Positions 6,942 through 25,731 of a DNA stretch of 64,000 nucleotides are shown here, piece after piece; position 1 is the stretch's first letter; each line of letters starts with the position of its first letter. The DNA lies in assembly GCA_903910645.1 (NCBI GenBank), contig CAIWAD010000113.1:45564-109563 (forward strand). The letters run 5' to 3'. The notes below the pieces were generated by a model, which was not told the origin of the DNA, did not search any database, and worked only from the letters and a program-made list of their open reading frames with translations. The DNA is from an uncultured bacterium (GTDB lineage: Bacteria; CAIWAD01). The position numbers and the translations under genes are program-made.

Positions 6942-7175
6942 GGTCATCTCCTTATGATGGATGGGCGCCATGATAGGCAAATGGCGCTTGCCGCGAAAGT
7001 GCCCCCTGCCCCGCGCTTCACCTGTCAGGAAAAAAACCAGGTACCATTTTGGAACAATGGGGCAGGCATGCGAGTATGATGGCCCTGTCCCGGATGGGTC
7101 CACGGCTGTGGAACCACCCGCGCAGGCGCACACGGTCACAACCAATTTTCTCAAAGCTGTCGGAAAGGACATTTC

Positions 7176-7646
7176 ATGAAGAAGATCCTGGCCATCCTCA
7201 CCGGTGCCCTCGTGGTGTTCGCACTGGTTCAAAGCACTCCTGCCCTGGCCGGCGCCGGCTGCTGCCCCAAGGGCGAGAAGACCGCCAAGGCCTCCTCCTG
7301 CGGCGCCCCCGGTGCCGATGCCGCCCACGCCTCCAAGACCTGCACGGTGGACGGCAAAACCACCACCTGCACCATGAACGCCGATGGCAGCTGCAGTTTC
7401 CCCGCCGGCACGGTGGACCCCGCCACGGCCAAGGATGGCCTGAAGACCTGCGTGGTGGACGGCAAGACCGTCACCTGCAAGGTGAGCGCCGACGGCTCCT
7501 GCAGCATGAAGGGCGCCGAGGCTTGCCACGGTGCCGCCGCTGCCGCCAAGGGTTCCTGCTCCATGCCCTGCACCCCCGGCGCCGGCTGCCCGAGCAAGGC
7601 CGCCAAGGCCGTGAACAAGGATCCTTTCAAGGCCAGCGGCCTCTGA
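7176..7646 (+). CDS. Secreted Cys-rich protein (15 Cys) with a duplicated ~22-aa module
   Basis: Signal peptide MKKILAILTGALVVFALVQSTPALA. Repeats KTCTVDGKTTTCTMNADGSCSF and KTCVVDGKTVTCKVSADGSCSM, plus CC and C-x-C pairs. Confidence 0.6.
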   Translation: MKKILAILTGALVVFALVQSTPALAGAGCCPKGEKTAKASSCGAPGADAAHASKTCTVDGKTTTCTMNADGSCSFPAGTVDPATAKDGLKTCVVDGKTVTCKVSADGSCSMKGAEACHGAAAAAKGSCSMPCTPGAGCPSKAAKAVNKDPFKASGL

Positions 7647-7671
7647 TCCTCCGCCTTCAGCACCAATTGGA

Positions 7672-7700
7672 AGGGCCCGGCACCATGTCGGGCCCTTTCT
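7672..7700 (+). terminator. Rho-independent terminator after the Cys-rich protein gene
   Basis: AGGGCCCG-(9 nt loop)-CGGGCCCT followed by TTCT. Confidence 0.6.
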
Positions 7701-7852: not shown

Positions 7853-8449
7853 ATGCAGGCAGTTGACCGCTTCCTTCGCGTAGGTCTGCCGCTGACCGTC
7901 GTGAGCGTGCTCATCACGGTCATCCTGGTAGGCTGGAACACCCAACCGGACCGCTACCACATTGGTTATGCGCCGGAGCAGCCCATTCCCTACTCCCACA
8001 AGGTGCACGCCGGGGACAACCACATCCCTTGCGAGTACTGCCACACGGGAGCCCGCCAGGGACGACACGCCATGGTGCCGGCGGTGGAGGCCTGCTTCAA
8101 GTGCCACAACCTTACGCGCACGGACAGCCCGCACATCCAGCGCCTGAAGGCCGCCCTGGATGCCGGCCAGGCCTTCCCCTGGAAGCGCATCCACGACCTG
8201 CCCGACCATGTGTACTTCGACCATCGGCCCCATGTGGGCCTGGGCATCGCCTGCCAGGAATGCCACGGTCCAGTGGAGACCATGGAAGTGGTGGAGCAGG
8301 TGCTGAACATGCGCATGGGCGCCTGCCTTGAGTGCCATCGCGGCCAGCGCCAGTGGTCCACGCCCGTGCCCGCTCCCCGGGCGGACATGGTGCAGGTGGC
8401 TTCCGGCCACCCCACCGGCCCCACCAGTTGCAATGCCTGCCATCGTTGA
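7853..8449 (+). CDS. actA: Alternative Complex III pentaheme cytochrome c subunit
   Basis: N-terminal TM helix plus five CXXCH motifs (CEYCH, CFKCH, CQECH, CLECH, CNACH). First gene of the actABCDEF cluster. Confidence 0.85.
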   Translation: MQAVDRFLRVGLPLTVVSVLITVILVGWNTQPDRYHIGYAPEQPIPYSHKVHAGDNHIPCEYCHTGARQGRHAMVPAVEACFKCHNLTRTDSPHIQRLKAALDAGQAFPWKRIHDLPDHVYFDHRPHVGLGIACQECHGPVETMEVVEQVLNMRMGACLECHRGQRQWSTPVPAPRADMVQVASGHPTGPTSCNACHR

Positions 8450-8476
8450 CATGAACTTCCTGGAGGTTCCGTGCAG

Positions 8477-8674
8477 ATGACGCACACCACCCGGCGACAG
8501 GCCCTGGGAACCCTGGGAGGCCTGCTGGCCGCCCTGGCGCTCTTCCTGGTGCCCGGCTCCAGTGCCCTTGCGGCGCTGCGCAAGCCGGCCGCCACGCCGC
8601 GGACATCCGCTCCGGCCAAGGGCGAAGCGCCCGTGGTCCGGCCGCCCCAACATTCGGTGAGCCGCCATGGCTGA
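8477..8674 (+). CDS. Small (65 aa) putative Tat/Sec-signal protein between actA and actB
   Basis: GGAGG 9 nt upstream of the ATG at 8477. Sequence MTHTTRRQALGTLGGLLAALALFLVPGSSALAAL... has a twin-Arg motif plus a hydrophobic helix. Confidence 0.35.
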   Translation: MTHTTRRQALGTLGGLLAALALFLVPGSSALAALRKPAATPRTSAPAKGEAPVVRPPQHSVSRHG

Positions 8675-11600
8675 TCACACCCCTTCATCGCCGCGCTTCT
8701 GGCGCAGCCGGGCCGAGCAGGCCGCCGATCCCGCCTTCCAGGAACCGCTGCAGCGCGAGTTCGAGCCGAACAGCGCCCACCAGCCGGAAGATCCCGCCGC
8801 GGGCATGTCCCGCAGGCGCTTCCTGGGCTTGCTGGGAGCCTCCGCCGCCTTGGCGGCAGGGGCCGCTGGCTGTGGCCGAAACATCGACCGCGGAGACATT
8901 GTGCCCTACACGCGCCGCCCGGAGGATGGCCTTCCCGGGCGTGCCATGTGGTATGCCACCAGCAGCGCGGAAGCCTGCTGGGTCTTCCCCTTGCTGGTGA
9001 AGACCCGGGAATCGCGACCCATCCTCATTGAAGGCAATGACAGCCATCCCGACTCCCTGGGAGCCGCCCCCATGCGGGCCCAGGCGGAATTGCTGGGCCT
9101 TTACGATCCCGAGCGCCTGCAGGCACCGGCCAAGGCGGGGGCCACGGAGTCGTGGGACAACGCCCTGGCCGCCCTGGCGTCCGGAATGGGCAAAGGCAAG
9201 AGCCTTCTGCTCACGGGCGCCGTGGTGTCGCCATCCCGCCAGGCCCTGCTGGAGCGTTTGGCCCAGAGCTATCCCGGCGTGGAAATCCACTGTTGGGAAG
9301 CCGCCGCGCCCCATGGTGCCCTGGCCGCCAGCCAGCAATTGGGCGCCGGCCAGTTGCTGCCGCGCCTGAACCTGGAAAAGGCCCGGGTGGTGCTCAGCCT
9401 GGAAGCCGAGCTTTTCGCGGGTGAGGGAGATCTTCCCCGACAGATCCGCGCCTTTGCTGCCGCGCGTCGGCCGTTGACCCACGGGGAGGCCACGCCTGAA
9501 GGCATGAACCGCCTGTGGGCGGCGGAATCCCGCATGACTTTGACCGGCGGCAAGAGTGATCATCGCCTGGCCCTGCGCTCCAGCGCGCTGCCCGCCCTGG
9601 CTTTCGCCCTGGCCCGCCGACTGAACGAACTGGGGTTGGCCTGGCCCGGCGCGCCGTTGTCCGCGCCCTCCCTGGCGGAATTCGCCAAGGCGGAAGGCCT
9701 GGATGGCAAGCTGTTGGAGTTATTGGCCCAGGATCTGAAGCAGGCTGGCCCCGCCGCCGTGGTGGTGGCCGGCAACCAGGGCAGCGCCGCCCTTCATGGC
9801 GCGGCCTTGGTGCTGAACCGCATGCTGGGTGCCGAGGGCAATACCTTCAGCTGGCGTCCTGCCGCCTTGCGCCCCCTGGCCTCCCACGCGGAAATGTCCC
9901 AGCTGGGCAAGCGGCTCCAGGCGGGGGAATTCGCCACCGTGGTGCTGGCCGGCGTGAATCCTGTCTACGATGGCCCGGCGGGGCTGGATTGGGCCAAGGC
10001 CCTGTCCGGCGCGGGCGAGCGCTTCCACCTTGGCCTTTTGCCCGACGAGAGCGCCGCCGCCTGCACATGGTCCCTGCCCCTGAACCATTGGCTGGAATGC
10101 TGGGGCGACCACATGGGCGGCCTCCTGCAACAGCCTGTGGTGGCTCCCCTTTACGACACCCGCGCCCTGGACGAAATTCTGCTGAACCTGCTGGCCAAGG
10201 GTGGCCAAAGCGTTCCCGCGGATGGCTTGTCCTGGCTGAAGGGGCTCTGGCAGGCTGAGTACGCCCGCCAGGGCAGCCCGCTGGCTTTTGACGCCTTCTG
10301 GCATGCCTCGCTACAGCAGGGCTTCAGCGCCACGGCCTTCCCCGCTGCCCCCGCGCCTGTTCTTTCCGCTGGCGCCCTCACGGCCTGGTCCGCGCCCATG
10401 GCCGCCTCCAAGCTGGAATTGACGCTTCATGCGGACCGCCGCCTCTTCGATGGACGCGGCGCCAACATCGGCTGGCTGCAGGAGCTCCCGGATCCCGTGA
10501 CCAAGTGCACCTGGGGCAATCCTTTGTCAATTGCCCCGGCGGACGCCAAGGCCCAAAGTTTGAAGGACGGCGACCGCGTCATGTTGTCAAGCGGCGCCCA
10601 GTCGCTGGAGTGCACCGTGCTGGTGCAGCCCGGCCAGAAGGTTGGCACTTGCGCCCTGGCCCTGGGCCATGGACGCACGGCCTTGTCGGTGGCGGAAGGC
10701 ATCGGCGTGAACGCCTTCACCCTGATGCAGGGCGGCGCCACCTTGCTGCCCAATGTGAGCCTGGCCAAGGCCACCACCACCGCCATGACCCACACCACCC
10801 AGGAACACCAGCTGATGGAAGGCCGCGACATTGTGCGCAGCCTGCCGCTGGCCTCCTTTGCCGCCGGCGAGACCGGCGCACCTTCCCATGGCGCCCACGC
10901 GGGTGGCCAAAGTGAAGGGAAGGGTGCTGAGCATGGTGCCGCCGCCGCAGCCGCCCTGGCCACGGGTCGGGACCATGGATTGAAACAGAAGGAAGAGGCT
11001 CCCCTGACCCTGTACCCGGACCACGAGTACCTGGGCCACAAATGGGGCATGGCCATTGACCTTAGCGCCTGTGTGGGCTGCGCCGGTTGCGTTATTGCCT
11101 GCCAGGCGGAGAACAACATTCCCACTGTGGGCCCAGAGCGCGTGGACGAAGGCCGCGAAATGCACTGGATCCGCATCGACCGCTATTACGAGGGCGATGA
11201 GGAGAATCCGGACATGGTCTTCCAGCCCATGTTGTGCCAGCACTGCGACCACGCCCCCTGCGAGAATGTCTGCCCGGTGGCCGCCACCACGCACAACGAG
11301 GAAGGTCTGAACCAGATGACCTACAACCGTTGTGTGGGCACGCGCTACTGCGCCAACAACTGCCCCTACAAGGTGCGCCGCTTCAACTACTTCAGCTACA
11401 CGGGTGAACTGGCCGCCGTGCTGCAGCTGGCCGCCAATCCGGAAGTGAGTGTGCGTCCTCGTGGTGTCATGGAGAAGTGCACGTTCTGCGTGCAGCGCAT
11501 CAACGAGGCCAAGAATCAGGCCAAGGCCGAGGCGCGCCCGCTGGTGGATGGGGAAATCAAGCCCGCCTGCGCGGTGGCCTGCGCCGCCGGCGCCATCACT

Positions 11601-11753
11601 TTCGGCGATTTGAACGCCGACAGCGAGGTGGCGCGCCTGTCCCAGGCCGACCGTCGTTACAAAGTGCTGGAAGAACTGGGAGTGAGGCCCGCCGTGACCT
11701 ACCTGGCCGAACTGCGCAACCCCCTTGCCGCCGGAGGCGCCCATGAGTCATGA
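8667..11753 (+). CDS. actB: Alternative Complex III subunit B (molybdopterin-oxidoreductase-like domain + 4Fe-4S ferredoxin domain)
   Basis: Tat motif [22 protein letters not shown], a large MopB-like region, and a C-terminal Cys-cluster region ([42 protein letters not shown]). The start could alternatively be the ATG at 8805. Confidence 0.9.
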
Positions 11754-13125
11754 GGCCGTGCTGGCCGAGATCCGGCCCAAGCCCCTGGTGGTGGGGGAAG
11801 TCAGCCTGGGAGCCGTGGACGATGCCGTCTACGCCCCCATGGAATCCAAACCGCCCATGGTGTGGTGGGTGGCCCTGGCCTTCACCAGCGCCCTCATGCT
11901 CCTGGGCTTCGCCCTGATTGGCTACACGTTCTACGAAGGCATTGGCGTGTGGGGCAACAACGACCCGGTCTTTTGGGGCTGGGACATCACCAACTTCGTC
12001 TTCTGGGTGGGCATCGGCCACGCCGGAACCCTCATCAGCGCCGTGCTCTTCCTGTTCCGGCAGCGCTGGCGCAACGCCATTGCCCGCCTGGCGGAGGCCA
12101 TGACCATCTTCGCCGTGATGTGCGCGGCCATTTACCCCGCCATCCATGTGGGCAGGCCCTGGTTCGCCTTCTGGCTCTTCCCCTATCCCAACCAGCGCGG
12201 CATGTGGATCAATTTCAACAGCCCACTGGCCTGGGATGTCTTCGCGGTGAGCACCTACTTCACCGTCAGCCTCTTCTTCTGGTATGTGGGTCTTATCCCG
12301 GACCTGGCCAGCGCCCGGGACCGCGCCACGGGCAAGGTGCAGAAGGCCGTGTTCGGCGCCTTGAGCCTGGGCTGGCGCGGTGCCGCCCGGCACTGGACCC
12401 ACTATGAAAAGGCCTACATGATCCTGGCCGGCCTGGCCACGCCGCTGGTGCTCAGCGTGCACAGCATCGTGTCCTTCGACTTCGCCACCAGCGTCATCCC
12501 CGGCTGGCACACCACCATTTTCCCGCCTTACTTCGTGGCGGGCGCCGTGTTCAGCGGCTTCGCCATGGTGGTCACCGTGCTGGTCTTCGTGCGCAAGATC
12601 ATGCGCCTGGACCACCTCATCACCCTGGACCACATGGAAGTGATGAACAAGGTGATCCTTACCACGGGCTCCATTGTGGGTTACGCCTACGGCATGGAGT
12701 TCTTCATTGCCTGGTACGGCGGCGTGCCCGCCGAGCACTATGTCTTCATGAACCGCGCCACGGGCCCCTACGCCTGGGCCTACTGGACCATGGTCAGCTG
12801 CAACGTGATCTTCCCCCAGCTCTTCTGGTTCCGCAAGATCCGCCGCAGCATCGTGGCCATGTTCATCATTTCCATTTTTGTGAACATCGGCATGTGGTTC
12901 GAACGCTTCGTGATCATTGCCACCAGCCTGCACCGGGATTACCTGCCCAGCGCCTGGGGCTACTTCCGCCCCACACTGGTGGACATGGGCATCTTCGCCG
13001 GAACCTTCGGCCTTTTCTTCACCATGATCCTGCTCTTCAGCCGCACCCTGCCGGTGATTGCCACGGCGGAGCTGAAAGCGGTGCTTCCCGGCGCGCAGCC
13101 CGGCCATGGAGGTCATCATGAGTGA
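11743..13125 (+). CDS. actC: Alternative Complex III NrfD/PsrC-like membrane subunit
   Basis: Polytopic membrane protein of the NrfD family. GGAGG RBS, and it overlaps the actB stop. Confidence 0.9.
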
Positions 13126-14299
13126 TCGTCCCTTCCTGGTGCTGGGCCTGTTCCAGGACGCCGACAAGCTGGTCCACGGCATTCGTGCCCTGAAATCGAC
13201 CTACGGCGACAAGCTGGAAGCCTACACGCCCTATCCCATCCACGGGATCGAGAAGGAACTGGGCATTCCAAAATCCCATGTGGGGAAAATCGTCCTCGCC
13301 CTGGGATTGTCGGGCCTGACCCTGGCCCTGGGTTTCCAGAGCTGGGTGTTCACCACGGACTACCAGATCCAGTTCGGCGGCAAGCCCTACTTCAGTTGGG
13401 CCAGCTTCGTGCCCATTGTGTTTGAAGTGACCGTGCTGCTGGCCTGCATTGTGGGCGCCGTGTTCGGCATGCTGGTGTTGGTGAACAAGCTGCCGCACTA
13501 CTCGCACCCCATCCTGTCCAGCCGCAGCATGCCCAAGATCACGCGGGACCGCTTCGCCCTGGCGGTGAGCGTGGACACGGCGGAGGACGCCGCCCGCGCC
13601 GAGGCCGCCCTGCGCCAGGCCGGCGCGCCGGAAACAGAAGTGGTGCACGGCACGGACGAAATTGGATCCGGCCCCTTGCTGCCGCTGAAGCCCGTGCTGG
13701 CCACGGTGATCATCTGCGTGCTGGCGGGTCTGGGCACCTGGCACCTGCAGCGGTTATGGAACAAGCTGCCGCTCATCTCCATCATGGATGAGCAAACCAA
13801 GGTGCTGCCCTTCCGCGCCAACGCCTTCTACCCCGACGGCCAGTCCATGCGCCCGCTGGTGCCGGGCACCGTGTCGCGCAGCGCCGAGTACGCCGCCTGG
13901 ACCACGCCGGAGGAAGCCGGTCAAATGCTGGTCAACCCCCTGTCGGCGGACAGCCTGACTCTTGCCAAGGGTCGCCGGGGCTATGAAACCCATTGCCTGG
14001 TATGCCACGGCCAGTTGGGCGATGGCACGAAACTGCTGAGCGACAAATACACGGGCGCTCCCGCCAACCTGCACCAGGCACGCTTGAAGGAAGCCCCGGA
14101 CGGTCACCTGTTCGCGGTGGTCACCGCCGGCAAGAACACCATGGCCGGTTACGGCAAGGACATTCCCGCCGCCGACCGCTGGGCCATTGTGCACTATGTG
14201 CGCGTGCTGCAGCGGGCCCTGGACGCCAGCGACGCCGATGTCCAGGCGGCCCAGGCCGTGGCTGCGGCCGCGCCTGTTGCCCAGGGAGGAAGCCACTGA
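13118..14299 (+). CDS. actDE: Fused ActD (DUF3341 membrane subunit) and ActE (monoheme cytochrome c)
   Basis: N-terminal half is ActD-like ([25 protein letters not shown]...). C-terminal half carries the single CLVCHG heme motif typical of ActE. It is one continuous ORF. Confidence 0.8.
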
Positions 14300-15450
14300 T
14301 GGGCAAGACCATGCTACCCAAGTTGATGGCCGGTCTGGGCCTGCTGGGCGTGATTGGCGCCTGGTTTGCCGGGGATTCCGCCCGTTTCAGCGCCAACTGG
14401 TTCGTGTGGAGCATCCTGCTCCTGGCCGTGGCCCTGGGTTCCCTGTTCATCGTTGCGCTGGAGCACCTGACCCGCGCCCAGTGGAGCATTGTGTTGCGCC
14501 GCGTGCCGGAACGCCTGTCGGGCCTCCTGCCCGCTCTGGCCGTTGTATTTGCCATTGGCGCGGCCCTGGGCCTTGCCGGGAATTTCGGTTGGTCCACCCC
14601 GGCCTTCCGTGAAGCCCTGGCCACAGAGCCCCACCTGCATGGCAAGGCCATCTGGTACAGCTCGCCCTTCTTCATTGGCCGTCTGGTCTTCATTTTTGCC
14701 GTGTGGCTCATGAGCTGGAAGCTCCTGGCCGGTGGCAGCATGAAGCAGGATGAGACGAAAGATCCGCGCTTCAGTCTTTTCGCCAAGCGCTTCAGTGCGC
14801 CTTTCATGTGGCTCTTCGCCATTAGCGTCACGGTGTTGACGGTGGACTGGCTCATGGGCATGAGCCCGCGCTGGTTCAGCACCATCTTCGGCGTCTACGG
14901 CTTCTCGGGCATCTTTCTGAGCGGTCTGGCGGCCACGGTGCTGGGCATCCTGCACCTGAAGAAGCAAGGCCGCCTCCAGGAAGTGCGTCCGGACCACTTG
15001 TACAGCCTGGGCGGGTTCCTGTTCGCCTTTACGGTGTTCTGGGCTTACATCGCTTTCAGCCAGTTCATGCTCATCTGGTACGCCAACCTGCCGGAAGAGA
15101 CCTTCTGGTTCCACACCCGCCTGACGGGTGGCTGGTACCCGGTCACCTTCATCCTGCCCATCCTGCGCTTCATCGTGCCCTTCTTCGCCCTGCTTTCGCG
15201 GGAAGTGAAGATGGATGCCCGTCGCCTGTCCCTCGTGGCGGTGCTGGTGCTGGTGGGCCAGGCCCTGGACCTGTACTGGCTGATTGTCCCGGAACTGGGT
15301 CGTGGCGTGCTCTTCGGCTGGCAGGAAGTGGCCTTCGGCCTCTTCTTCACGGGCCTGGGACTTAGCCTGGCGGAAGCCCGCATGAATGTGGGCAAGGACC
15401 TGCCGGAAGGCGACCCCAATCTGGACGCCAGTCTTCATTATCACCTGTAG
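14299..15450 (+). CDS. actF: Alternative Complex III second NrfD-like membrane subunit
   Basis: Polytopic membrane protein paralogous to ActC. GGAGGA RBS, and TGATG overlap with actDE. Confidence 0.85.
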   Translation: MGKTMLPKLMAGLGLLGVIGAWFAGDSARFSANWFVWSILLLAVALGSLFIVALEHLTRAQWSIVLRRVPERLSGLLPALAVVFAIGAALGLAGNFGWSTPAFREALATEPHLHGKAIWYSSPFFIGRLVFIFAVWLMSWKLLAGGSMKQDETKDPRFSLFAKRFSAPFMWLFAISVTVLTVDWLMGMSPRWFSTIFGVYGFSGIFLSGLAATVLGILHLKKQGRLQEVRPDHLYSLGGFLFAFTVFWAYIAFSQFMLIWYANLPEETFWFHTRLTGGWYPVTFILPILRFIVPFFALLSREVKMDARRLSLVAVLVLVGQALDLYWLIVPELGRGVLFGWQEVAFGLFFTGLGLSLAEARMNVGKDLPEGDPNLDASLHYHL

Positions 15451-15459
15451 GAAGCAGTC

Positions 15460-16335
15460 ATGGCGCAACCTGAACGCAACAGCATTCTCCCCACCCTGGC
15501 CTGGAGCCTGGCCATCCTCTTGGCCATGGGCATCTTCTTCGGCCTGCTGGTGGGTCCGGCCCTGACAAAGGGCGGCGCGGGCACGGCCCACGGCTATCTG
15601 CCTCCCCAGGCGCCCACGGACCTGACGGAGTTCGATGCGGTGAAGGGCCGTCAGGCGCCGGGCATCAACCTGGGTCAGGCCGTGGCGGGTGATCCTGCAC
15701 TGAAGACCTGGGCCAAGGATGAATACGGCAAGATCTGCGTGGCCTGCCATGGACCCGCGGGCAAGGGCGATGGCCCCGCCGGTCTGGCCCTGCAGGCGCG
15801 CAACTTCACGCTGAACGAGGCCTGGAAGAACGGGCCCAAGCTCACGCAGATCTTCCAGACGCTGAGCAAGGGTTTGCCGCCCAAGATGCCCGCCTACGAC
15901 ACCTACACCCCGGCCCAGCGGCTGGCGCTGGCCCATGTGGTGCAGGGCTTCATGGCCTTCCCCAAGCCGGCGGCCAGCGCGGCGGAGGTGGCGGCCATGG
16001 ACGCGGAATTCAGTCTCAGCGCAGGCGTGCGGGATCCCGGACGCGTAAGCGTAAGTGTGGCCGCCCAGCGCGTGGCCCAGGAAAGTCAGGCCACAAGCTT
16101 GAATGTGGAGGCCCTGCCAGCCGATCTGCGCCATCTGGTGCGTCATGCGGCCAAGGCCGGCCAGACCCTGGTGGGCCTGAAGGGCTTGAGCGGCGCCAAT
16201 TGGACGGCGGCCCTGCATGCGGGAGCACCGGCCAACGGCTTCTCTCCGGCGGTGGGGGCTCTGGGCGGCGCCGATTGGCAGCGTTTGAACGCGGCCCTGG
16301 CGGTGGCCACCCAGGCCGGCACCAGCACCAACTAG
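15460..16335 (+). CDS. Membrane-anchored class I monoheme cytochrome c
   Basis: N-terminal TM helix and one CVACHG motif. Sits between the ACIII and oxidase modules, so it is the likely electron carrier. Confidence 0.7.
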   Translation: MAQPERNSILPTLAWSLAILLAMGIFFGLLVGPALTKGGAGTAHGYLPPQAPTDLTEFDAVKGRQAPGINLGQAVAGDPALKTWAKDEYGKICVACHGPAGKGDGPAGLALQARNFTLNEAWKNGPKLTQIFQTLSKGLPPKMPAYDTYTPAQRLALAHVVQGFMAFPKPAASAAEVAAMDAEFSLSAGVRDPGRVSVSVAAQRVAQESQATSLNVEALPADLRHLVRHAAKAGQTLVGLKGLSGANWTAALHAGAPANGFSPAVGALGGADWQRLNAALAVATQAGTSTN

Positions 16336-16342
16336 GCAGCTC

Positions 16343-16376
16343 AGGCGGCTGCGGTCCTGGACCCGGCCGCCTTTTT
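16343..16376 (+). terminator. Hairpin with a T-run between the cytochrome c gene and sco1 (possible partial terminator/attenuator)
   Basis: AGGCGGC...GCCGCCT followed by TTTT. The loop is long (16 nt), so confidence is low. Confidence 0.3.
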
Positions 16377-16436
16377 CCTGCCTCGCAAGTTCGTCTGGAC
16401 TAAGTTTGTTGATTGAATAACAAGTCAGGAGAACCC

Positions 16437-17306
16437 ATGGCCCCTTCCCCCCCTTTCCGACGATGGGTGCCCATCGTCCTGTTGGTGGCCAGCCTTGCCG
16501 CCTTCCCAGCCCGGGCCGCGCAGCCCGCGGCGGAGGAGGACAAGGCCGGCGTGTTTTTCGATGAGCATCTGGGACAGGTCCTGCCCGGCGATGTGTTGCT
16601 GCGCGACGAAGCGGGCAATCCCGTGCGGCTGGACTCCCTGGTGGACAAGCCCACCATCTTGAACTTCGTCTACTTCGATTGCCCCGGCGTGTGCACGCCC
16701 CTGCTGAACGAAGTGGCGGACATCCTGGGCAAGACGGACCTGGATCCGCGCAAGGAGCCCTTCCAGATCCTGACGGTGAGTTTCGAGCCCCGGGACACGC
16801 CGGAGGTGGCGTCCGAGAAGCGCGCCAATTATCTGGCCATGCTCAGCCGCCCCCTGCCCCAGGAGAGCTGGCGCTTCCTGACCGGCGACGCGGAACCGCT
16901 GGCGCGCCTCACCAAGGCCGCGGGCTTTTCCTACAAGAAGGCCGGCTTTGAATATGTGCATCCCGGCGGGCTCATCCTGCTGGCGCCAGACCGCACCATT
17001 GTGCGCTATCTCTACGGCACCAAGTTCCTGCCCTTCGATTTCAAGATGGGCATCGCCGAAGCCGCAAAGGGACATGTGCTTCCCACCACGGCACGCCTGC
17101 TCACCATCTGCTTCAGCTACGACCCCGAGGGCCGCACCTATGTCTTCAACACCATGCGCGTGGTGGGCAGCAGCATGCTGCTGACGGTGGGCCTCTTCGC
17201 CGGCTTCCTGGCGGTCACCCAGAAGCGCGGCAGCCGTGGCCTGGGCCGCAAAGCCCGCCAGGACAACACAGCAACCACCAGCACCCAGAATCGGGAGGAC
17301 GCATGA
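16437..17306 (+). CDS. SCO1/SenC copper chaperone (thioredoxin-like)
   Basis: CPGVC motif (FDCPGVCTPLLNEV), an N-terminal signal/anchor, and AGGAGA RBS. Confidence 0.85.
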   Translation: MAPSPPFRRWVPIVLLVASLAAFPARAAQPAAEEDKAGVFFDEHLGQVLPGDVLLRDEAGNPVRLDSLVDKPTILNFVYFDCPGVCTPLLNEVADILGKTDLDPRKEPFQILTVSFEPRDTPEVASEKRANYLAMLSRPLPQESWRFLTGDAEPLARLTKAAGFSYKKAGFEYVHPGGLILLAPDRTIVRYLYGTKFLPFDFKMGIAEAAKGHVLPTTARLLTICFSYDPEGRTYVFNTMRVVGSSMLLTVGLFAGFLAVTQKRGSRGLGRKARQDNTATTSTQNREDA

Positions 17307-18931
17307 CGGACAAGGCCAGCGGAGCCACCCCTCCGCGCGGATTTTACGGGCCGGAAGGCGGCGGGGGAGGTCTCCTCTCCTGGGTCTTCTCCACGGACCA
17401 CAAGCGCGTGGGTCTGCTCTACCTCTACTCGCTCCTGAGCTTCTTCGCCATCGGGGCCATCCTGGGCCTTACCATGCGCGCGGAGCTCCTGATGCCCGGC
17501 CAGCAATTGGTCAGTCCCCGGGTTTACAACAGTCTCTTCACCCTGCACGGCGTGATCATGATCTTCCTGTTCATTGTGCCGGGCATTCCCGCCATCATGG
17601 GCAACTTCATGCTGCCCTTGCAGATTGGCGCGGAGGATGTGGCCTTTCCCCGCCTGAATCTGGCCAGCTGGTGGGTGTACATGGTGGGCGCCTTCCTGGC
17701 CGTCACCAGCCTGTTCAGCGGCGGCGGCGCTCCGGACACGGGCTGGACCTTTTACGCGCCTTATTCCATCCGCACCAACTCCAATGTGAGCCTGGCCGTG
17801 CTGGCGGCCTTCATCCTGGGCTTCAGCAGCGTGCTCACGGGCATCAACTTCATCACCACCATCCACCGCATGCGGGCCAAGGGCATGGGATTCTTCCGCA
17901 TGCCGCTCTTCGTGTGGAGCCTTTACGCCACCAGCTGGATCCAGGTCATCGCCACACCGGTGGTGGGCATCACTCTGGTCCTGGTGGTGCTGGAGCGATT
18001 GCTGGGCATTGGCTTCTTTGATCCGGCGGCAGGCGGTGATCCCATCCTCTACCAGCACCTTTTCTGGATTTACAGCCATCCCGCCGTGTACATCATGATC
18101 CTCCCCGCCATGGGTGTCATCAGCGAAATCCTGCCCACTTTTTCCCGGCGCACCATTTTCGGCTACAAGGCCATCGCCATGAGCAGCATGGCCATTGCTG
18201 GCGTGGGCTACCTGGTGTGGGGGCATCACATGTTCACCACGGGCATGAGCGACACCAGCCGCGTGGTGTTCAGCCTCATGACCTTCCTTGTGGCCATCCC
18301 CACAGGCATCAAGATTTTCAACTGGGTGGCCACGCTCTACAGGGGCAGCATCAGTCTTGAAAGCCCCATGCTTTACGCCATGGCCTTCATCTTCCTGTTC
18401 AGCATCGGCGGCCTGACGGGTCTGGTGAACGGCGCCCTGTCCACGGACATCCATGTGCACGACACCTACTTCGTGGTGGGCCACTTCCACTATGTGATGT
18501 TCGGCGGCACGGGCATTGCCCTGTTCGCCGCCCTCCACTATTGGCTGCCCAAGATCAGCGGCCGCATGGTGAATGAGAAGAAAGCCAAGCGCGCCTTCTG
18601 GCTGGTGGTCATTGGCTTCAACCTGCTCTACTTCCCCATGCTGGTGCTGGGCATCATGGGCATGCCGCGCCGTTACCACGATTACCTGCCCATTTTCCAA
18701 ACGCCGCATGTGATCAGCACCATCGGCTCCTGGGTCATTGCCACGGGTCTTGTGCTCATGTTCTGGAATCTGTGGAGCAGCGCCCGCCGGGGCGCCCTGG
18801 CGGGGAACAACCCCTGGGGAGGCACAACGCTGGAATGGCAGACCACCAGCCCGCCGCCCACGCTGAACTTCGACGCCCCCGTCACGGTGACGGCCGGCCC
18901 CTACGAGCGCGGTGAAGGGAGAACGGCATGA
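17303..18931 (+). CDS. ctaD: Cytochrome c oxidase subunit I
   Basis: 12-TM heme-copper oxidase subunit I with conserved His ligands (e.g. GHFHYV, HHMF). ATGA overlap with sco1. Confidence 0.95.
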   Translation: MTDKASGATPPRGFYGPEGGGGGLLSWVFSTDHKRVGLLYLYSLLSFFAIGAILGLTMRAELLMPGQQLVSPRVYNSLFTLHGVIMIFLFIVPGIPAIMGNFMLPLQIGAEDVAFPRLNLASWWVYMVGAFLAVTSLFSGGGAPDTGWTFYAPYSIRTNSNVSLAVLAAFILGFSSVLTGINFITTIHRMRAKGMGFFRMPLFVWSLYATSWIQVIATPVVGITLVLVVLERLLGIGFFDPAAGGDPILYQHLFWIYSHPAVYIMILPAMGVISEILPTFSRRTIFGYKAIAMSSMAIAGVGYLVWGHHMFTTGMSDTSRVVFSLMTFLVAIPTGIKIFNWVATLYRGSISLESPMLYAMAFIFLFSIGGLTGLVNGALSTDIHVHDTYFVVGHFHYVMFGGTGIALFAALHYWLPKISGRMVNEKKAKRAFWLVVIGFNLLYFPMLVLGIMGMPRRYHDYLPIFQTPHVISTIGSWVIATGLVLMFWNLWSSARRGALAGNNPWGGTTLEWQTTSPPPTLNFDAPVTVTAGPYERGEGRTA

Positions 18932-19554
18932 GCGACACCACCCTGGCCCATGGTGCACATGCTCCGCACAAGGACTACGAAGGCGCAAAGACGGGCATGT
19001 GGATCTTCCTGTTCACGGAACTCCTGCTCTTCGGCGGCCTGTTCCTGGTGTACTCGGTCTATCGCACCCTGTACACCCATGACTTCCACCTGGCCGCCGG
19101 GCACCTGAATGTGCCACTGGGCGTCACCAACACCTTCGTGCTCCTCACCAGCAGCCTGACCATGGTGCTCTCCGTGACGGCCCTGCAAAAGGGTGACCGC
19201 CAGAGCGCCCTGAACACACTGGGCTGGACGCTCTTCCTGGCCGGGCTCTTCCTGGTGATCAAATTCTTCGAATGGAGCGCCAAGATCGAGCACGGCCTCT
19301 ACCCCGGCTCACCCGTGCTGAAGTCCCTGCCCGCCGGCGAGGGCCTCTTCTACGGCCTCTATTTCGTCATGACCGGTCTGCACGGCTTCCATGTCATTGT
19401 GGGAATGATCCTCCTGAGCGTCATCGCCTTCCAGGTGAAGAGCGGGCGCGTCCACCAGGGAGACTTCGTGAAGCTGGAGAACGCGGGCCTCTACTGGCAC
19501 CTGGTGGATCTGGTGTGGATCTTCCTTCTGCCTCTTTTCTACCTCACCAACTGA
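18928..19554 (+). CDS. ctaE: Cytochrome c oxidase subunit III
   Basis: Subunit III-like membrane protein. ATGA overlap with ctaD. Confidence 0.9.
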   Translation: MSDTTLAHGAHAPHKDYEGAKTGMWIFLFTELLLFGGLFLVYSVYRTLYTHDFHLAAGHLNVPLGVTNTFVLLTSSLTMVLSVTALQKGDRQSALNTLGWTLFLAGLFLVIKFFEWSAKIEHGLYPGSPVLKSLPAGEGLFYGLYFVMTGLHGFHVIVGMILLSVIAFQVKSGRVHQGDFVKLENAGLYWHLVDLVWIFLLPLFYLTN

Positions 19555-19880
19555 TGGACGGCACCATGCACGACAATACCCATGCACATGGGGACGGCCG
19601 CACCGCGGAGCACGCTCCCCAGCCTTACGGGCTCTTCATCAAGGTGTGGGCGGCGCTCATGCTGCTCACCTGCATCACCGTGGGCGCATCGGTGAACTGG
19701 CCGGGCGCCGTGGGCACCGCGGTGGCCATGGCCGTTACGCCGGTGAAGGCCAGCCTGGTCCTGCTCTTCTTCATGCATTTGAAGTGGGAGCCCCCGGTGT
19801 TCAAAATCATGTTCCTCACCGCCGTGGGGCTGATGGCCGTGTTCTTCGGCCTCAGCTTCTTCGACTATCTCTACCGTTAG
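19554..19880 (+). CDS. Cytochrome c oxidase subunit IV (prokaryotic small subunit)
   Basis: 108-aa three-TM protein with FFMHLKWE-type motif, translationally coupled (TGATG). Confidence 0.7.
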   Translation: MDGTMHDNTHAHGDGRTAEHAPQPYGLFIKVWAALMLLTCITVGASVNWPGAVGTAVAMAVTPVKASLVLLFFMHLKWEPPVFKIMFLTAVGLMAVFFGLSFFDYLYR

Positions 19881-19889
19881 GAGCTCGCC

Positions 19890-20783
19890 ATGCAAGGAGT
19901 TTCAAGCTATTCCGGCATTGTCGATGGCGCCTTCTGGTATATCCTGGGCATCTCGGCCGTGCTGCTTGTTGGCATCACCATCGTGATGATCTGGTTCGCC
20001 TTCCGTTACAGCGTGAAGCGCAATCCCAACCCGGCCCAGATCCACGGCAGCGTGGCGCTGGAGACCCTGTGGACGGTCATTCCCACGCTGCTCGTGCTCA
20101 GCATGTTCTGGTACGGCTGGACGGGCTTCAAGCGCATGCGGGATGTGCCCCAGGAAGCCATGCTGGTGAAGGTGACGGCCCGCATGTGGAGCTGGAGTTT
20201 CGAGTATCCGGATGGCCGCCGCAGCCAGGAGCTGGTGGTGCCCGTGGGCCGTCCCGTACGCCTGGAGCTGCTAAGCAAGGATGTGCTGCACAGCTTCTTC
20301 GTGCCTGCCTTCCGCCTGAAGGAGGACGCGGTGCCCGGGCGCACCAACCACGCCTGGTTCCAGGCGGACAAGGCCGGCTCCTACGATCTGCTGTGCGCCG
20401 AGTACTGCGGTGACCAGCACAGCAAAATGCTGGGCACGGTGCGCGTGCTGCCGGATGCGGACTACGCCACCTGGCAGGCCAATCCTCCCGCCATGGTGAC
20501 CGGTCCGGAGCTGCTGGCCGCCAAGGGTTGCACCACCTGCCACAGCCAGGACGGCAGCCGCATGGTGGGTCCCTCCTTCAAGGGCCTGATGGGGCGCAAG
20601 GAGATGGTGGTGCAGACGGATGGGGAGAGCGAAGTCACCGTGGATGAGGCCTATCTGCGCCGCAGCATCCTGGAGCCCAAGGCCCAGGTGGTGAAGGGCT
20701 TCGACCCGGTCATGCCCGAGCAGCGTGACCTGTTGAGCGACGAGGAGCTGGACGAGATCATCAAGGTCCTGCAGGGCCTCTAA
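19890..20783 (+). CDS. ctaC: Cytochrome c oxidase subunit II with a fused C-terminal cytochrome c domain (caa3-type)
   Basis: CuA site H-x34-CAEYCG-x2-H, plus a C-terminal CTTCH heme motif. Confidence 0.9.
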   Translation: MQGVSSYSGIVDGAFWYILGISAVLLVGITIVMIWFAFRYSVKRNPNPAQIHGSVALETLWTVIPTLLVLSMFWYGWTGFKRMRDVPQEAMLVKVTARMWSWSFEYPDGRRSQELVVPVGRPVRLELLSKDVLHSFFVPAFRLKEDAVPGRTNHAWFQADKAGSYDLLCAEYCGDQHSKMLGTVRVLPDADYATWQANPPAMVTGPELLAAKGCTTCHSQDGSRMVGPSFKGLMGRKEMVVQTDGESEVTVDEAYLRRSILEPKAQVVKGFDPVMPEQRDLLSDEELDEIIKVLQGL

Positions 20784-20931
20784 ATGTGGACAGGGCCCCT
20801 TCCGGCCCGCGCCGGGAGGGGCCCGCACTTCACAAGATCTGCCGGGTGGCATTTGCAGATCATGACAGGGGTCGGACGATTCGTGGACAGGCAAACCCAT
20901 GGGGAAGCGTCCACCAGCTTGAGGGAGCACC

Positions 20932-21819
20932 ATGAAGACGCTGCTTGAACTGATGAAGGTGAAAATCACCGCCGCCGTGACCTTCACCACCGCCGTGGGT
21001 TATGTGCTGGCCCGTGGCACTTTCGACGCTGATGTGGCGGCGCCTCTCCTGGGACTCTTCCTGCAGGCGGCGGGGGCGGCGGCCTTGAACCACGCCCAGG
21101 AGGCGGATGTGGACGCCCTGGTGCCGCGCACGGCCCAGCGCCCCATTCCCAGTGGCCGCATCAGCCGTGGGGGCGTGGTGCTGTGGGCCACCACGCTGCT
21201 CACCCTGGGAAGCGTGGTGTTGTGGATGGGCGCGGGTTGGCTGCCCATGGCCATTGGCCTGGTCACAGCCGTGCTTTACAACGGCATCTATACTCCGTTG
21301 AAACGGCGCACCCCCTTCGCCGTGCTGCCGGGCAGCTTCATTGGCGCCCTGCCGCCACTGGCAGGCTGGGTGGCCGGCGGCGGCTGGCTGCAGGATTTGA
21401 CCATCCATCAGGTGGCTTTCTTCTTCTTCATCTGGCAGGTGCCTCATTTCTGGCTCCTGTTGCTCTTCCACGAACGCGCTTATCGGGAAAACGGCCTGCC
21501 CAGTCTTTTTGACCGATTCGAGAAGCGCCAGATCCTGCGCCTGACCTTCGCCTGGACCAGCGCCACGGCCATTGCCGGCCTGATGATGCCCCTGTTTCGC
21601 GCCGTGCGCCACGATGTCACCGGTTGGCTGATTGCGCTGTCGGCCCTGCTGCTCATGGGAGCGGCGGCCCGCTGGCTGGGCGCCGGCTTCATGGCAAGCA
21701 CCACCGAGGCCGTGGCGGACGAACGGGGGCGCAAGGTGTTCATCCGCTGTTTTGCCGCGGTGAACAGCTATGCCTTGTTCGTGATGATCGCGCTGATTGT
21801 GGATCGCCTGTCGTCCTGA
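20932..21819 (+). CDS. ctaB: Protoheme IX farnesyltransferase (heme O synthase)
   Basis: UbiA-family polyprenyltransferase with an RPIPSGRIS-type motif. Confidence 0.9.
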   Translation: MKTLLELMKVKITAAVTFTTAVGYVLARGTFDADVAAPLLGLFLQAAGAAALNHAQEADVDALVPRTAQRPIPSGRISRGGVVLWATTLLTLGSVVLWMGAGWLPMAIGLVTAVLYNGIYTPLKRRTPFAVLPGSFIGALPPLAGWVAGGGWLQDLTIHQVAFFFFIWQVPHFWLLLLFHERAYRENGLPSLFDRFEKRQILRLTFAWTSATAIAGLMMPLFRAVRHDVTGWLIALSALLLMGAAARWLGAGFMASTTEAVADERGRKVFIRCFAAVNSYALFVMIALIVDRLSS

Positions 21820-22044
21820 TTCACCCATAGGCAAAACAGCTCTCGTCTCGAGTCTCGAACTCCATCTCAGCGCAGCGCTTCTCCTGCCCTGCACCCTGTC
21901 CTTCCAGCGAAAGCTGGGATCTGGAGTCAGCCTGGATTCCCGTTTTCGCGGGAATGACAGGTCCGTGTTCCGCTACTATGTGCAGCAACGCTCCTGCACC
22001 GAGCCGAACATCAAAACCCTGCCGGGCCGATCCTGCCACCAAGA

Positions 22045-22071
22045 GCAAGGGCCCCACGCGGGGGCCCTTGC
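22045..22071. other. GC-rich stem-loop in the convergent intergenic region (no U-tract)
   Basis: GCAAGGGCCCC-ACGCG-GGGGCCCTTGC. Confidence 0.4.
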
Positions 22072-22094
22072 AGCAATGCCTGGTTTGAGGGGGA

Positions 22095-23333
22095 TCAGTT
22101 GGTGATCCGGCAAGTACGGAAGCCAAAGTCCGACATCTGATTTGTTTGGCCATTTGGAGCACGCCACACACTGGGCAACCAGGTATTGTCGCGCTGCCAA
22201 CTGCCATTCTTGGCTACGCGGCTGGTGCTCACCGTGGTGGGCCCAACGGGGTTGGTGCGTGGCTGGTTTGGCAGGGAACTTGCGTAGTAGTCGTTGGTGA
22301 ATTCCCCCACATTTCCGCCCATGTCCTGCAGGCCCTGAGCCGTGTTGCCAAACGGATGGCTACCCACAGCGCTGGTCCAACCCACGCAATAGCCTCCGCG
22401 GTTGTAGTTGGCTTCCGTGCATGTGGGCGAGCTGTTACCCCATGGATAGGTGGTGTCACCATTCATGCAAGCCGCATATTCCCATTCCGCTTCCGTTGGC
22501 AAGCGATAGCCAGTGGCCAAATAGGGGTTGTTGACAGACGGATCCATGGCCCAGTTGCCATTGTAAAAGGGAACCAAGCCTTCCATCATGCTGCGCCAAT
22601 CGCAATAGCACGCGGCACCATACCAGCTTACCATCTTGGCCGGATGGACATTGGCGTCGTAGCCACCAGGATAGGCGAAGCCTGGACCAAATGTACCACC
22701 ATTGTAGGTTGAACTCTGCACATAGAATAGCCCTGTGGTGGAGTTGTATCTGATTTCCAGATAATTTATTCCAGATACATAGACCAGTTTGACACCGTAA
22801 GCATACACATTGCTAGTTCCATAAACCGCATCATAGACAACAGTAATCAGGCCTTCAGCTTTTGCCCAGTTCAGGGCTTCCACATACTCGGCATTGGTTA
22901 CTTCGTGTTGACCCAAACAATAGTTGTGCGTTAAAGTGACTTGATTCATAACACCATTGCCCATGTAGAAGGAACCGGCTTGCAGGCCCACCATGCCCAC
23001 GGGTGTGGTTGAATACTCCAGATTCACGCGGAACATGGCGCTGTCCACGCTGATGGGCGAGCTTGTGCCCATGGCGTACACCACGCTGTGCGCGCCCGCG
23101 GCAACACTTCCCACATCGCCGCTCAGCTGCGCCGTGGGGACACTGGTCCAGTTGGTGCCGCCGTCCAGGCTGCGCTCCACCGTCACCGTGCCCGCCGTGT
23201 CCGTGCTGTAGCTGATATCCACCAGGCCCGTGCCATCCGTGCGCTGGGCGAAGCTGACACCCGACACTGTTGCGGCAAGGGCGCTGCCAGCCACCAGGGC
23301 GCCCATCAGGCTGGTCATCAAAGTCTTGTTCAT
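22095..23333 (-). CDS. Secreted protein with a C-terminal FGE-sulfatase (SUMF1/formylglycine-generating-enzyme family) domain
   Basis: Signal peptide MNKTLMTSLMGALVAGSALAA. C-terminal motifs RLPTEAEWEYAA, GNVGEF, KNGSW typical of the FGE-sulfatase fold. AAGGAG RBS. Confidence 0.8.
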   Translation of the reverse strand: MNKTLMTSLMGALVAGSALAATVSGVSFAQRTDGTGLVDISYSTDTAGTVTVERSLDGGTNWTSVPTAQLSGDVGSVAAGAHSVVYAMGTSSPISVDSAMFRVNLEYSTTPVGMVGLQAGSFYMGNGVMNQVTLTHNYCLGQHEVTNAEYVEALNWAKAEGLITVVYDAVYGTSNVYAYGVKLVYVSGINYLEIRYNSTTGLFYVQSSTYNGGTFGPGFAYPGGYDANVHPAKMVSWYGAACYCDWRSMMEGLVPFYNGNWAMDPSVNNPYLATGYRLPTEAEWEYAACMNGDTTYPWGNSSPTCTEANYNRGGYCVGWTSAVGSHPFGNTAQGLQDMGGNVGEFTNDYYASSLPNQPRTNPVGPTTVSTSRVAKNGSWQRDNTWLPSVWRAPNGQTNQMSDFGFRTCRITN

Positions 23334-23344
23334 CAGGATGCTCC

Positions 23345-25689: not shown

Positions 25690-25731
25690 TTCCTGAACCC
25701 CTTGCTGCTTCCCTGCCCCGGAAGCCGACCC

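Follow-up and report, generated by a model that had tools for sequence, protein, structure and literature searches.

Thirteen co-directional genes on the + strand, at 7853-21819 of the window (the whole 64,000-nucleotide stretch of DNA that was analysed), encode ACIII and a cytochrome c oxidase, and together they very probably constitute a chromosomal module for aerobic respiration of a widespread and already described type, which combines an ActDE-type ACIII, an A2-type haem-copper oxidase and two assembly genes. The cluster is an ordinary further example of the known ActDE-type ACIII-oxidase cassette. Its fused ActDE protein and its oxidase gene order I-III-IV-II are the normal, previously published layout, which is common to many phyla.

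Gene content and organization of the cluster

The following features were identified.

actA, 7853..8449, +, pentahaem cytochrome c with an N-terminal TM helix; Pfam Cytochrome_C7 and c3_2; five CxxCH motifs
small ORF, 8477..8674 (alternative start 8471), +, 65 aa, conserved family
actB, 8667..11753, +, molybdopterin-like B1 and 4-cluster Fe-S B2; 6f0k_B, E 1e-191
actC, 11743..13125, +, NrfD-like quinol-binding membrane subunit; Pfam NrfD, 5e-26
actDE, 13118..14299, +, one 393-aa ORF; Pfam ActD and Cytochrome_CBB3
actF, 14299..15450, +, second NrfD-like membrane subunit; 6f0k_F, 5e-60, and 6btm_F, 4e-45
membrane-anchored monohaem cytochrome c, 15460..16335, +, Pfam Cytochrome_CBB3; helix 13-31; CVACH
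hairpin and T5 run, intrinsic-terminator-like, 16343..16376, +, directly 3' of the cytochrome c stop codon
SCO1/SenC copper chaperone, 16437..17306, +, Pfam SCO1-SenC; CPGVC motif
ctaD, oxidase subunit I, 17303..18931, +, Pfam COX1, 7e-156
ctaE, oxidase subunit III, 18928..19554, +, Pfam COX3, 1e-20
prokaryotic oxidase subunit IV, 19554..19880, +, Pfam COX4_pro, 2e-12; three TM helices
ctaC, oxidase subunit II, 19890..20783, +, Pfam COX2_TM and COX2; CuA site; C-terminal monohaem cytochrome c domain
ctaB, protohaem IX farnesyltransferase (haem O synthase), 20932..21819, +, Pfam UbiA, 9e-39

Pfam matches, PDB sequence matches and cofactor motifs all agreed with the gene-by-gene annotation of this region that had been proposed in an earlier note on this DNA, and the haem, CuA and copper-chaperone motifs are all intact. 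The overlaps of 1-11 nt described in that note are present at seven junctions (8, 11, 8, 1, 4, 4 and 1 nt), while the remaining junctions are gaps of 9-148 nt. The 11-nt overlap between actB and actC, which results from the ATG start of actC and is also found in a related locus (L081), has an alternative in a TTG start at 11725. The SCO1 protein has hydrophobic helices near both ends, as judged by hydropathy, and its ATG is preceded by an AGGAG Shine-Dalgarno sequence. In relatives, ctaB is the final gene of the conserved cluster. No RNA family was detected by an Rfam scan of the whole window, and a sigma-70 promoter scan returned a few weak matches, none of them informative for an FCB-group organism. 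A neighbouring gene carries a T9SS sorting domain.

Distribution of the gene order and of the ActD-ActE fusion

A genome scan yielded 589 relatives, and gene order was compared in the best 80 of these. The order actA-B-C-DE-F-cytc-sco-ctaD-E-IV-C-ctaB was identical in all of the best 80 of 589, as far as the contigs reach, and the extra cytochrome c was located at the same position in every locus extending far enough. Independent gene calls gave the same architecture in loci L081, L083, L085 and L087-L089. The carriers among the best 80 of 589 belong to at least eight labelled phyla and include Acidobacteriota, Holophagae/Geothrix, Myxococcota-labelled MAGs, Elusimicrobia, Ignavibacteria/Melioribacter, Methylomirabilota, Binatia and Riflebacteria. 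The nearly invariant order across this range indicates that the fusion, the extra membrane cytochrome c and the I-III-IV-II order travel as one module.

The joining of ActD and ActE in a single 393-aa ORF, as noted earlier, was upheld, and the two halves of the protein match separate PDB chains: residues 8-181 match the ActD chain 6f0k_D (9e-24) and residues 223-376 match the ActE chain 6f0k_E (1e-28). The ActD part (Pfam PF11821, 3e-48) consists of a cytoplasmic domain and two TM helices, and a third TM helix (approximately residues 190-213) joins it to the monohaem ActE domain, in which the haem ligands are C293xxC296H297 and Met342. The AF2 model of ActDE has a pLDDT of 83.5, and its top Foldseek matches are ActD and ActE chains. 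The ActDE homologues among the matches listed, which were drawn from NCBI, JGI, ENA and Logan assemblies, are 369-488 aa in length with the exception of one of 316 aa (120 proteins), and in 65 aligned homologues the fusion is kept and the haem ligands are invariant.

Textbook oxidase operons have the order II-I-III, and ActD and ActE are separate chains in the structurally solved ACIIIs, both of which favour regarding the fusion and the I-III-IV-II order as unusual innovations of the window's lineage. That interpretation is extremely unlikely, because fusion and order alike are shared by at least eight labelled phyla among the best 80 of 589 relatives and because the fusion has been in the literature since 2012 (PMC3362086, PMC3534657). 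It was explicitly described in that year for IALB_1390 of Ignavibacterium album (PMC3362086), Mros0042 of Melioribacter roseus was reported in 2013 to have three TM helices (PMC3534657), and in 2017 'fused ActDE', CoxI/II and SCO1 were reported as detected or induced when M. roseus was grown aerobically (PMC5492636). It is scarcely conceivable that the fusion is an assembly or frameshift artefact and that two separate genes exist in reality, since both domains are present in 120/120 homologues among the matches listed, with identity down to about 32%, and since the fusion is kept across all 80 best genome loci. The linker, moreover, holds a conserved third TM helix that is required by the topology, and the fused protein was seen by proteomics in M. 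roseus. The fusion and the ctaD-ctaE-subunit IV-ctaC order are thus present as the earlier note had read them, but its suggestion that they stand out was not sustained: the fusion is shared by all of the listed homologues and already published, and the order that had been called non-canonical is the norm in the best 80 of 589 relatives, which the note itself had named as a finding that would tell against it.

Identity of the act half

The subunits expected of an ACIII were all found, namely ActA, ActB, two NrfD-like subunits, and ActD and the monohaem ActE in one polypeptide. ActA has its helix at residues 8-26 and is pentahaem, as in ACIII, and five haem motifs were found in every related locus. 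ActB matches Pfam Molydop_binding and Fer4 as well as NCBIfam TIGR04519. ActF had no Pfam or NCBIfam match and was identified by PDB sequence search. The membrane cytochrome c has one TM helix and one CxxCH motif, and its C-terminal domain, roughly 125 aa long, is conserved; in M. roseus this cytochrome corresponds to Mros0040, which was there called 'actE'. In keeping with the earlier note, no actG-like gene was seen, as judged from the lack of an additional ORF after actF and from the literature on relatives, M. roseus likewise lacking the gene (PMC3534657).

The act half is a putative menaquinol:cytochrome c oxidoreductase, an activity supported by homology and by the M. roseus and R. marinus data. 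It is very unlikely to be a Qrc-like or other CISM-family quinone reductase functionally unrelated to the adjacent oxidase. The best NCBIfam matches of ActA and ActB are indeed QrcA, QrcB and QrcC, but all of these are far below the cut-offs, and ActB matches R. marinus ActB at 1e-191. Furthermore, the ACIII-specific ActD (PF11821, 3e-48), an ActF-type subunit (5e-60) and ActE are all present, the act genes are invariably linked to the oxidase in the best 80 of 589 loci, and the homologous M. roseus proteins are aerobically induced (PMC5492636).

Type of the oxidase and its haem

Helix VI of CtaD contains the motif YSHPAVY, within ...LFWIYSHPAVYIMILP..., and YSHPxV (Tyr-Ser) in place of the A1 glutamate motif is what we take to be the marker of the A2 subtype. 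By its sequence, CtaD is an A-type haem-copper oxidase subunit I of the A2 subtype, and its closest solved relative is that of the T. thermophilus caa3 oxidase (2yev_A, 4e-144). A cytochrome c domain fused to the CuA-bearing subunit II is present in CtaC, which carries the CuA motif CAEYCGDQHSKM and one haem c motif, CTTCH, its Pfam cytochrome c matches being sub-threshold.

A caa3 enzyme would have haem A in both of its haem sites and would need CtaA, the haem A synthase. The sole haem-synthesis gene linked to the cluster is ctaB. Pfam analysis of flanking ORFs and a hydropathy screen found no ctaA in the window, where all ORFs outside the cluster have three or fewer hydropathy-predicted TM helices and none is CtaA-like. 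For the relatives that have been characterised, the oxidases carry the designation cc(o/b)o3 (PMC5492636). The label 'caa3' for the window oxidase is unverified, and the enzyme may be either caa3 or c(o/b)o3.

A predicted terminator between the cytochrome c and sco genes

The hairpin with a T-run reported earlier at 16343-16376 is present, with its stem at 16343-16372 and a short T-run (T5) at 16372-16376. The 71-nt segment folds with -33.3 kcal/mol (z = -3.2), and 0/200 shuffles were as stable. The hairpin was the top-listed terminator-like site in the region. A hairpin and T-run at the same position, with other sequence, were found in loci L001, L081 and L085/L086, and 4/4 independent clade members have a strong stem followed by T4-T7 that starts no more than 45 nt from the stop codon. 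That an equivalent element with a different sequence occurs in all four suggests that it is probably a real terminator or attenuator whose structure, rather than sequence, is conserved. Downstream of the hairpin is a leader of 60-100 nt with a semi-conserved block and a Shine-Dalgarno sequence. In the other phyla no such hairpin was found, and hardly any space separates the cytochrome c gene from sco.

Alternatively, the hairpin might stabilise the transcript or serve in its processing, or it might be a GC-rich palindrome of neutral effect; in any of these cases the 13 genes would form one uninterrupted operon. Such a possibility is consistent with the GC-rich hairpins without T-runs at 7671-7697, 20793-20824 and 22046-22071, with the number of terminator-like sites in the region, which does not exceed that expected from shuffles (12 found vs 13.5 expected), and with the absence of the element from other phyla. 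It is nevertheless rather unlikely, given the stem and T-run close to the stop codon in 4/4 clade members with differing sequences, and given the leader and Shine-Dalgarno sequence that follow. The same recurrence lends support to the view, put forward in the earlier note, that the hairpin separates two expression units. As a predicted terminator or attenuator, it would divide the module into an upstream part with ACIII and the cytochrome c and a downstream part with SCO1, the oxidase and ctaB, and transcription is probably stopped or attenuated there, which would allow the halves to differ in expression level.

A small-protein family at the actA-actB junction

In the protein encoded by the small ORF at 8477-8674, a Tat-like RRxAL motif and a hydrophobic segment are joined by a variable linker to a conserved C-terminal PPxHSV(K/S)RHG. 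The ORF runs 8 nt into actB, which suggests that it is probably translationally coupled to actB, and the same 8-nt overlap is found in the window's clade and in locus L087. The family to which it belongs has members of about 55-90 aa, in which a Tat-like R-R/K-x-F motif is combined with a hydrophobic segment and with P-x-[AS]-V-[KS]-R conserved at the C terminus. The family profile matched 40 of the 8085 small ORFs from all loci, and 40/40 of these matches lie between actA and actB, where three look-ups seeded from small-ORF matches also all landed. The small ORF is called as a gene in relatives, and its database matches comprised 210 and 508 proteins; the family amounts to about 500 sequence clusters. 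Every named protein among the 120 matches listed is labelled 'hypothetical', no Pfam domain occurs in any of the 120, and the window's small ORF itself had no Pfam, NCBIfam or PDB match. The small ORF is not included in the published ACIII gene lists of I. album (PMC3362086) and M. roseus (PMC3534657). The I. album ACIII locus tags skip IALB_1387 (PMC3362086), which fits the position of the small ORF between actA and actB.

Two roles were considered for the small ORF and rejected. It does not supply a missing Tat signal to ActB, which has its own signal, SRRRFL; a canonical Tat signal of ActB itself, with or without the small ORF, is found in every locus with a readable N-terminus. Nor is it ActG or ActH, as none of the chains in the ACIII entries of the PDB matches it; for ActH, homologues are reported to be confined to Rhodothermus (PMC5928083). 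Tentatively, and with somewhat less than even probability, the small ORF may encode a so far overlooked component of the ActDE-type ACIII or a factor in its assembly.

Proposed electron path

On the basis of homology to solved ACIII structures, quinol would be oxidized at ActC, and electrons would pass via the Fe-S clusters of ActB to the five ActA haems and then to the haem of the ActE domain. The next acceptor would be the membrane-anchored monohaem cytochrome c, the cytochrome c domain of CtaC, or both, and the electrons would then move through CuA to the binuclear centre of CtaD. Putative proton paths run via ActC and ActF, and proton pumping is predicted. SCO1 would deliver copper to CuA, and CtaB would make haem O. 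ACIII and the oxidase may form a supercomplex, and the extra cytochrome c may have a role as proposed above; in R. marinus, ACIII and the caa3 oxidase are physically associated (PMC5928083).

Relationship to characterised systems

The closest known system is the M. roseus cluster Mros0045-0033 (PMC3534657; PMC5492636), which shares actA, actB, actC, fused actDE and actF with the window, as well as the extra monohaem cytochrome c, SCO1 and the oxidase genes, with no actG seen in either. The gene order in the M. roseus MAG loci L067 and L074 is the same as that in the window, the M. roseus ActDE likewise has three TM helices and one CxxCH motif, and its CoxI is A2-type like the window CtaD. However, amino-acid identity between the two clusters is only about 23-67%. 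The M. roseus paper gives four haem motifs for ActA, but the count obtained here is five, both for the window and for the MAG loci of M. roseus. In the M. roseus MAG L067, CtaC is short and contains no haem c motif, in contrast to the window CtaC with its single motif; M. roseus also has no hairpin of the kind located between the cytochrome c gene and sco in the window's clade.

In I. album, ACIII (IALB_1386, 1388-1391) is clustered with a 'caa3-type' cytochrome c oxidase and ActDE is fused as in the window (PMC3362086), but the organism is from another phylum and its genome is AT-rich. Unlike the window CtaC, subunit II contains no haem c motif in Ignavibacterium-labelled loci.

The core subunits of the window are homologous to those of the solved ACIIIs of Rhodothermus marinus (6F0K), Flavobacterium johnsoniae (6BTM), Roseiflexus (6LOD) and Chloroflexus (8K9E), with matches of 1e-191 for ActB, 5e-60 for ActF, 9e-24 for ActD and 1e-28 for ActE. 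A pentahaem ActA and an ActB with a Tat signal are common to the solved complexes and the window. An A-type oxidase is the partner of ACIII in both R. marinus and F. johnsoniae, and in the window the genes for such an oxidase lie beside the act genes. The solved complexes differ in having ActD and ActE as separate chains instead of one polypeptide, and R. marinus has ActG and ActH, neither of which was found in the window cluster. In F. johnsoniae, ActE is lipid-anchored and dispensable (PMC8552683), whereas in the window it is tethered to ActD by the third TM helix, which would return the ActE domain to the periplasm in place of a lipid anchor.

According to the M. roseus study (PMC5492636), the cc(o/b)o3 oxidase of D. 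vulgaris falls in the same A2 subclade as the oxidase of the M. roseus-type cluster, and its electron donor, as cited in PMC5492636 and PMC4383621, is a monohaem cytochrome c. The D. vulgaris oxidase has two haem c motifs in subunit II, compared with one in the window.

In conclusion, the window adds one uncultured lineage, probably Delongbacteria-related (FCB group), to the many carriers of the ActDE-type cassette. In the window's clade, a terminator-like element has been acquired that would split the module into two units. In addition, an unannotated small-protein family tied only to the actA-actB junction is a candidate for a missing ACIII subunit or assembly factor.

Gene content of the respiratory cluster

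Pfam, NCBIfam and PDB sequence searches identified 13 co-directional ORFs on the + strand between positions 7853 and 21819, which comprise alternative complex III (act) and cytochrome c oxidase (cta) genes.

Features of the cluster
7853-8449 (+), actA: Cytochrome_C7, five CxxCH motifs, N-terminal helix
8471/8477-8674 (+), small ORF between actA and actB
8667-11753 (+), actB: 6f0k_B, E 1e-191; Fe-S and molybdopterin-like domains, own Tat signal
11743-13125 (+), actC: NrfD
13118-14299 (+), actDE: 393 aa; PF11821 ActD, 3e-48, and a cytochrome c domain
14299-15450 (+), actF: 6f0k_F, 5e-60; no Pfam match
15460-16335 (+), cytochrome c gene: membrane-anchored, monohaem
16437-17306 (+), SCO1: CPGVC motif
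17303-18931 (+), ctaD: COX1, 7e-156
18928-19554 (+), ctaE: COX3
19554-19880 (+), subunit IV gene: COX4_pro
19890-20783 (+), ctaC: CuA motif CAEYCGDQHSKM and CTTCH
20932-21819 (+), ctaB: UbiA

Seven junctions are overlaps of 8, 11, 8, 1, 4, 4 and 1 nt, and the remaining ones are gaps of 9-148 nt. The gene content, the ActD-ActE fusion, the I-III-IV-II order of the oxidase genes and the hairpin at 16343-16376, all described in the earlier note, were confirmed by ORF calls, by domain and PDB matches, and by folding. At residues ~165-291, the cytochrome c has a C-terminal domain that is conserved, belongs to no known family and shows invariant GF, V, L, W and L positions.

A known type of respiratory module

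Clusters of the same type have been published. In Ignavibacterium album, IALB_1390 is an ActD-ActE fusion clustered with cytochrome oxidase (PMC3362086). Melioribacter roseus Mros0042 is also such a fusion, with three transmembrane helices, and this organism has an extra monohaem "actE" (Mros0040), lacks actG and has adjoining oxidase genes (PMC3534657). Multi-omics analysis of M. roseus found the "fused ActDE", CoxI/II and SCO1 protein to be specific to or preferential in aerobically grown cells, and placed the oxidase in an A2 subclade shared with the cc(o/b)o3 enzyme of Desulfovibrio vulgaris (PMC5492636).

The fusion, which the earlier note had singled out, is both already published and the rule among homologues. 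Among 5.8 billion proteins searched, 154 ActDE homologues were found, and all 120 listed carried both the ActD and ActE domains at identities down to 32%; apart from one 316-aa sequence, those listed were 369-488 aa long. Screening one genome per species gave 589 relatives. When the 13 window proteins were compared with the best 80 of these 589 loci by tblastn, the order actA-actB-actC-actDE-actF-cytochrome c-SCO1-ctaD-ctaE-subunit IV-ctaC-ctaB was found in all 80, to the limits of the contigs, and independent gene calls and Pfam labels on the relatives' loci gave the same architecture. These 80 loci were labeled as Acidobacteriota, Holophaga/Geothrix, Myxococcales or "delta proteobacterium", Elusimicrobia, Ignavibacteria/Melioribacter, Methylomirabilota, Binatia and Riflebacteria. 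The I-III-IV-II order, previously called non-canonical, is thus standard in clusters of this type as a whole, beyond the lineage of the window. The window cluster is a known type of respiratory module, and the features flagged as remarkable are the published norm of that type. In one related locus (L087, 9170-12260), ActB is encoded as two genes, B1 (721 aa) and B2 (253 aa), and an additional 90-aa ORF lies ahead of actDE.

The ActD-ActE fusion is real. In solved ACIII structures, ActD and ActE are separate chains, which match residues 8-181 (6f0k_D, 9e-24) and 223-376 (6f0k_E, 1e-28) of ActDE, respectively, and a third hydrophobic helix joins the two halves. The AlphaFold2 model, built on an alignment of 65 homologues, had a mean pLDDT of 83.5, and its top Foldseek matches were ActD and ActE chains from four ACIII structures; all 65 sequences keep C293, C296, H297 and M342 as haem ligands. 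Because ActD has both termini in the cytoplasm and ActE lies in the periplasm, the fusion requires an extra membrane pass, the third helix. Free ActE of Flavobacterium johnsoniae has a lipid anchor (PMC8552683), for which the third helix would substitute in ActDE.

The oxidase

The window CtaD carries YSHPAVY, the established A2 signature, and its nearest solved relative is Thermus caa3 subunit I. The only haem-synthesis gene linked to the cluster is ctaB (haem O synthase); a hydropathy screen and Pfam searches of the flanking ORFs revealed no polytopic protein resembling CtaA in the rest of the window, which leaves the "caa3" label of the earlier note provisional. Subunit II carries a single haem c motif. 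This cytochrome c domain is kept in the window and in GC-rich lineages, whereas in the Ignavibacteria-type loci (L041-L080) subunit II is mostly ~205-230 aa long and most lack CxxCH. In the Ignavibacteria type, the oxidase may depend on the extra membrane cytochrome c as its obligatory donor.

Genomic surroundings

The window has a high GC content of ~0.57-0.70 (2-kb windows), and that of the cluster matches that of its flanks, so nothing indicates that the cluster was acquired recently. The remainder of the window is ordinary chromosome (GlnA, Pth, L25, PRPP synthetase, FtsK, GcvT, MetRS and others), and a gene neighbouring the cluster encodes a T9SS sorting domain, which is among the signs of an uncultured lineage of the FCB group. 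The relative L085, from the window's own clade, is 69% identical.

Directly upstream of actA lies a 156-aa ORF (7176-7646, +) for a secreted, low-complexity protein that is rich in Cys, has repeated KTCVVDGKTVTC-like motifs and no Pfam family, and is conserved in the related loci L081, L083 and L085; it might bind metal in the periplasm. Genes for a multihaem cytochrome c that has a collagen-like repeat and for a rubrerythrin-domain protein (4599-6164, -; 6417-7529, -), upstream of the act cluster and divergent from it, also occur in these three loci. In two Ignavibacteria-type contigs, tatC is found two genes ahead of actA (L088, 6508-7272; L089, 6462-7226), which may be chance synteny. In L081 (16750-17950), ctaB is followed by two small genes and then Pth and L25. 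In the window, ~4 kb (21820-25900) separates ctaB from Pth and contains an FGE-sulfatase-domain gene (22095-23423, -) and a gene for a T9SS-sorted Ig-like protein (23345-24313, -).

A hairpin between the two halves of the cluster

The hairpin after the cytochrome c gene has an interrupted stem of 13 bp (16343-16372) and then T5; the folding energy of its 71-nt segment is -33.3 kcal/mol, which none of 200 shuffled sequences matched. The three closest assemblies and the closest genome were compared (L081, L085/L086 and L001, of the window's clade), and a strong stem with a T4-T7 run was found ≤45 nt past the cytochrome c stop. The clade's stems are mutually unrelated in sequence (GGGCCGTCCGC...GCGGGCGGC, GGAAGGCCGC...GCGGCCTTCC, AAAAAGACTGTC...GGCAGTCTTTTT), and 3' of them lies a 60-100-nt leader containing a semi-conserved block. 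Function is favoured because structure and position are conserved and sequence is not. In other phyla, no such hairpin was found, and the cytochrome c-sco gap is mostly <60 nt. The positional equivalents support the earlier proposal that the hairpin divides the ACIII and oxidase halves, as a clade-specific feature. Judged from sequence and predicted folding, it is most likely an intrinsic terminator or attenuator between the ACIII-cytochrome c unit and the SCO1-oxidase-ctaB unit.

Other strong GC-rich hairpins, with no clear T-run, lie at 7671-7697 (after the Cys-rich ORF), 20793-20824 (between ctaC and ctaB) and 22046-22071 (between ctaB and the convergent FGE-sulfatase gene).

The small ORF between actA and actB

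The least expected element of the cluster is the small ORF, which the earlier note had mentioned in passing. It likely starts at ATG 8477, preceded by GGAGG, and ends 8 nt into actB. Counterparts of 53-79 aa fill the actA-actB gap in both GC-rich and AT-rich relatives. The family has an N-terminal, Tat-like R-[RK]-x-[FIL] motif, a hydrophobic stretch, a variable linker and a conserved C-terminal [KR]-h-x-h-x-x-x-P-x-[AS]-V-[KS]-R motif. When a profile of 28 members was run against 8085 ORFs (35-130 aa, six frames; 86 loci and the window), 40 matched, every one of them on the coding strand and immediately downstream of actA. The small ORF was scored in 36 of the 61 loci with both actA and actB (genome-scan loci and the window), with a few more recognized by eye, and is absent altogether from several Acidobacteriota and Myxococcota-labelled loci.

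Protein-database searches gave 210 matches (word-indexed search) and 508 cluster representatives (full HMM search). Listed matches were 51-94 aa long and, where named, were "hypothetical protein"; no Pfam domain was found in any of the 120 listed of the 210. Three look-ups seeded from the matches all fell between ActA and ActB in ActDE-type clusters. The small ORF itself has no Pfam, NCBIfam or PDB relative, aside from a weak Tat-signal resemblance.

That the small ORF is a detached ActB signal was considered and ruled out, since ActB retains a Tat signal of its own at all loci with a readable N-terminus. The ACIII gene list of I. album omits IALB_1387 (PMC3362086), which fits a small ORF that was annotated but left out of ACIII. 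We tentatively suggest, at somewhat less than even odds, that the small ORF encodes a component of ACIII that has gone unrecognised; it might be a single-pass subunit or an assembly factor related to Tat, or have another role.
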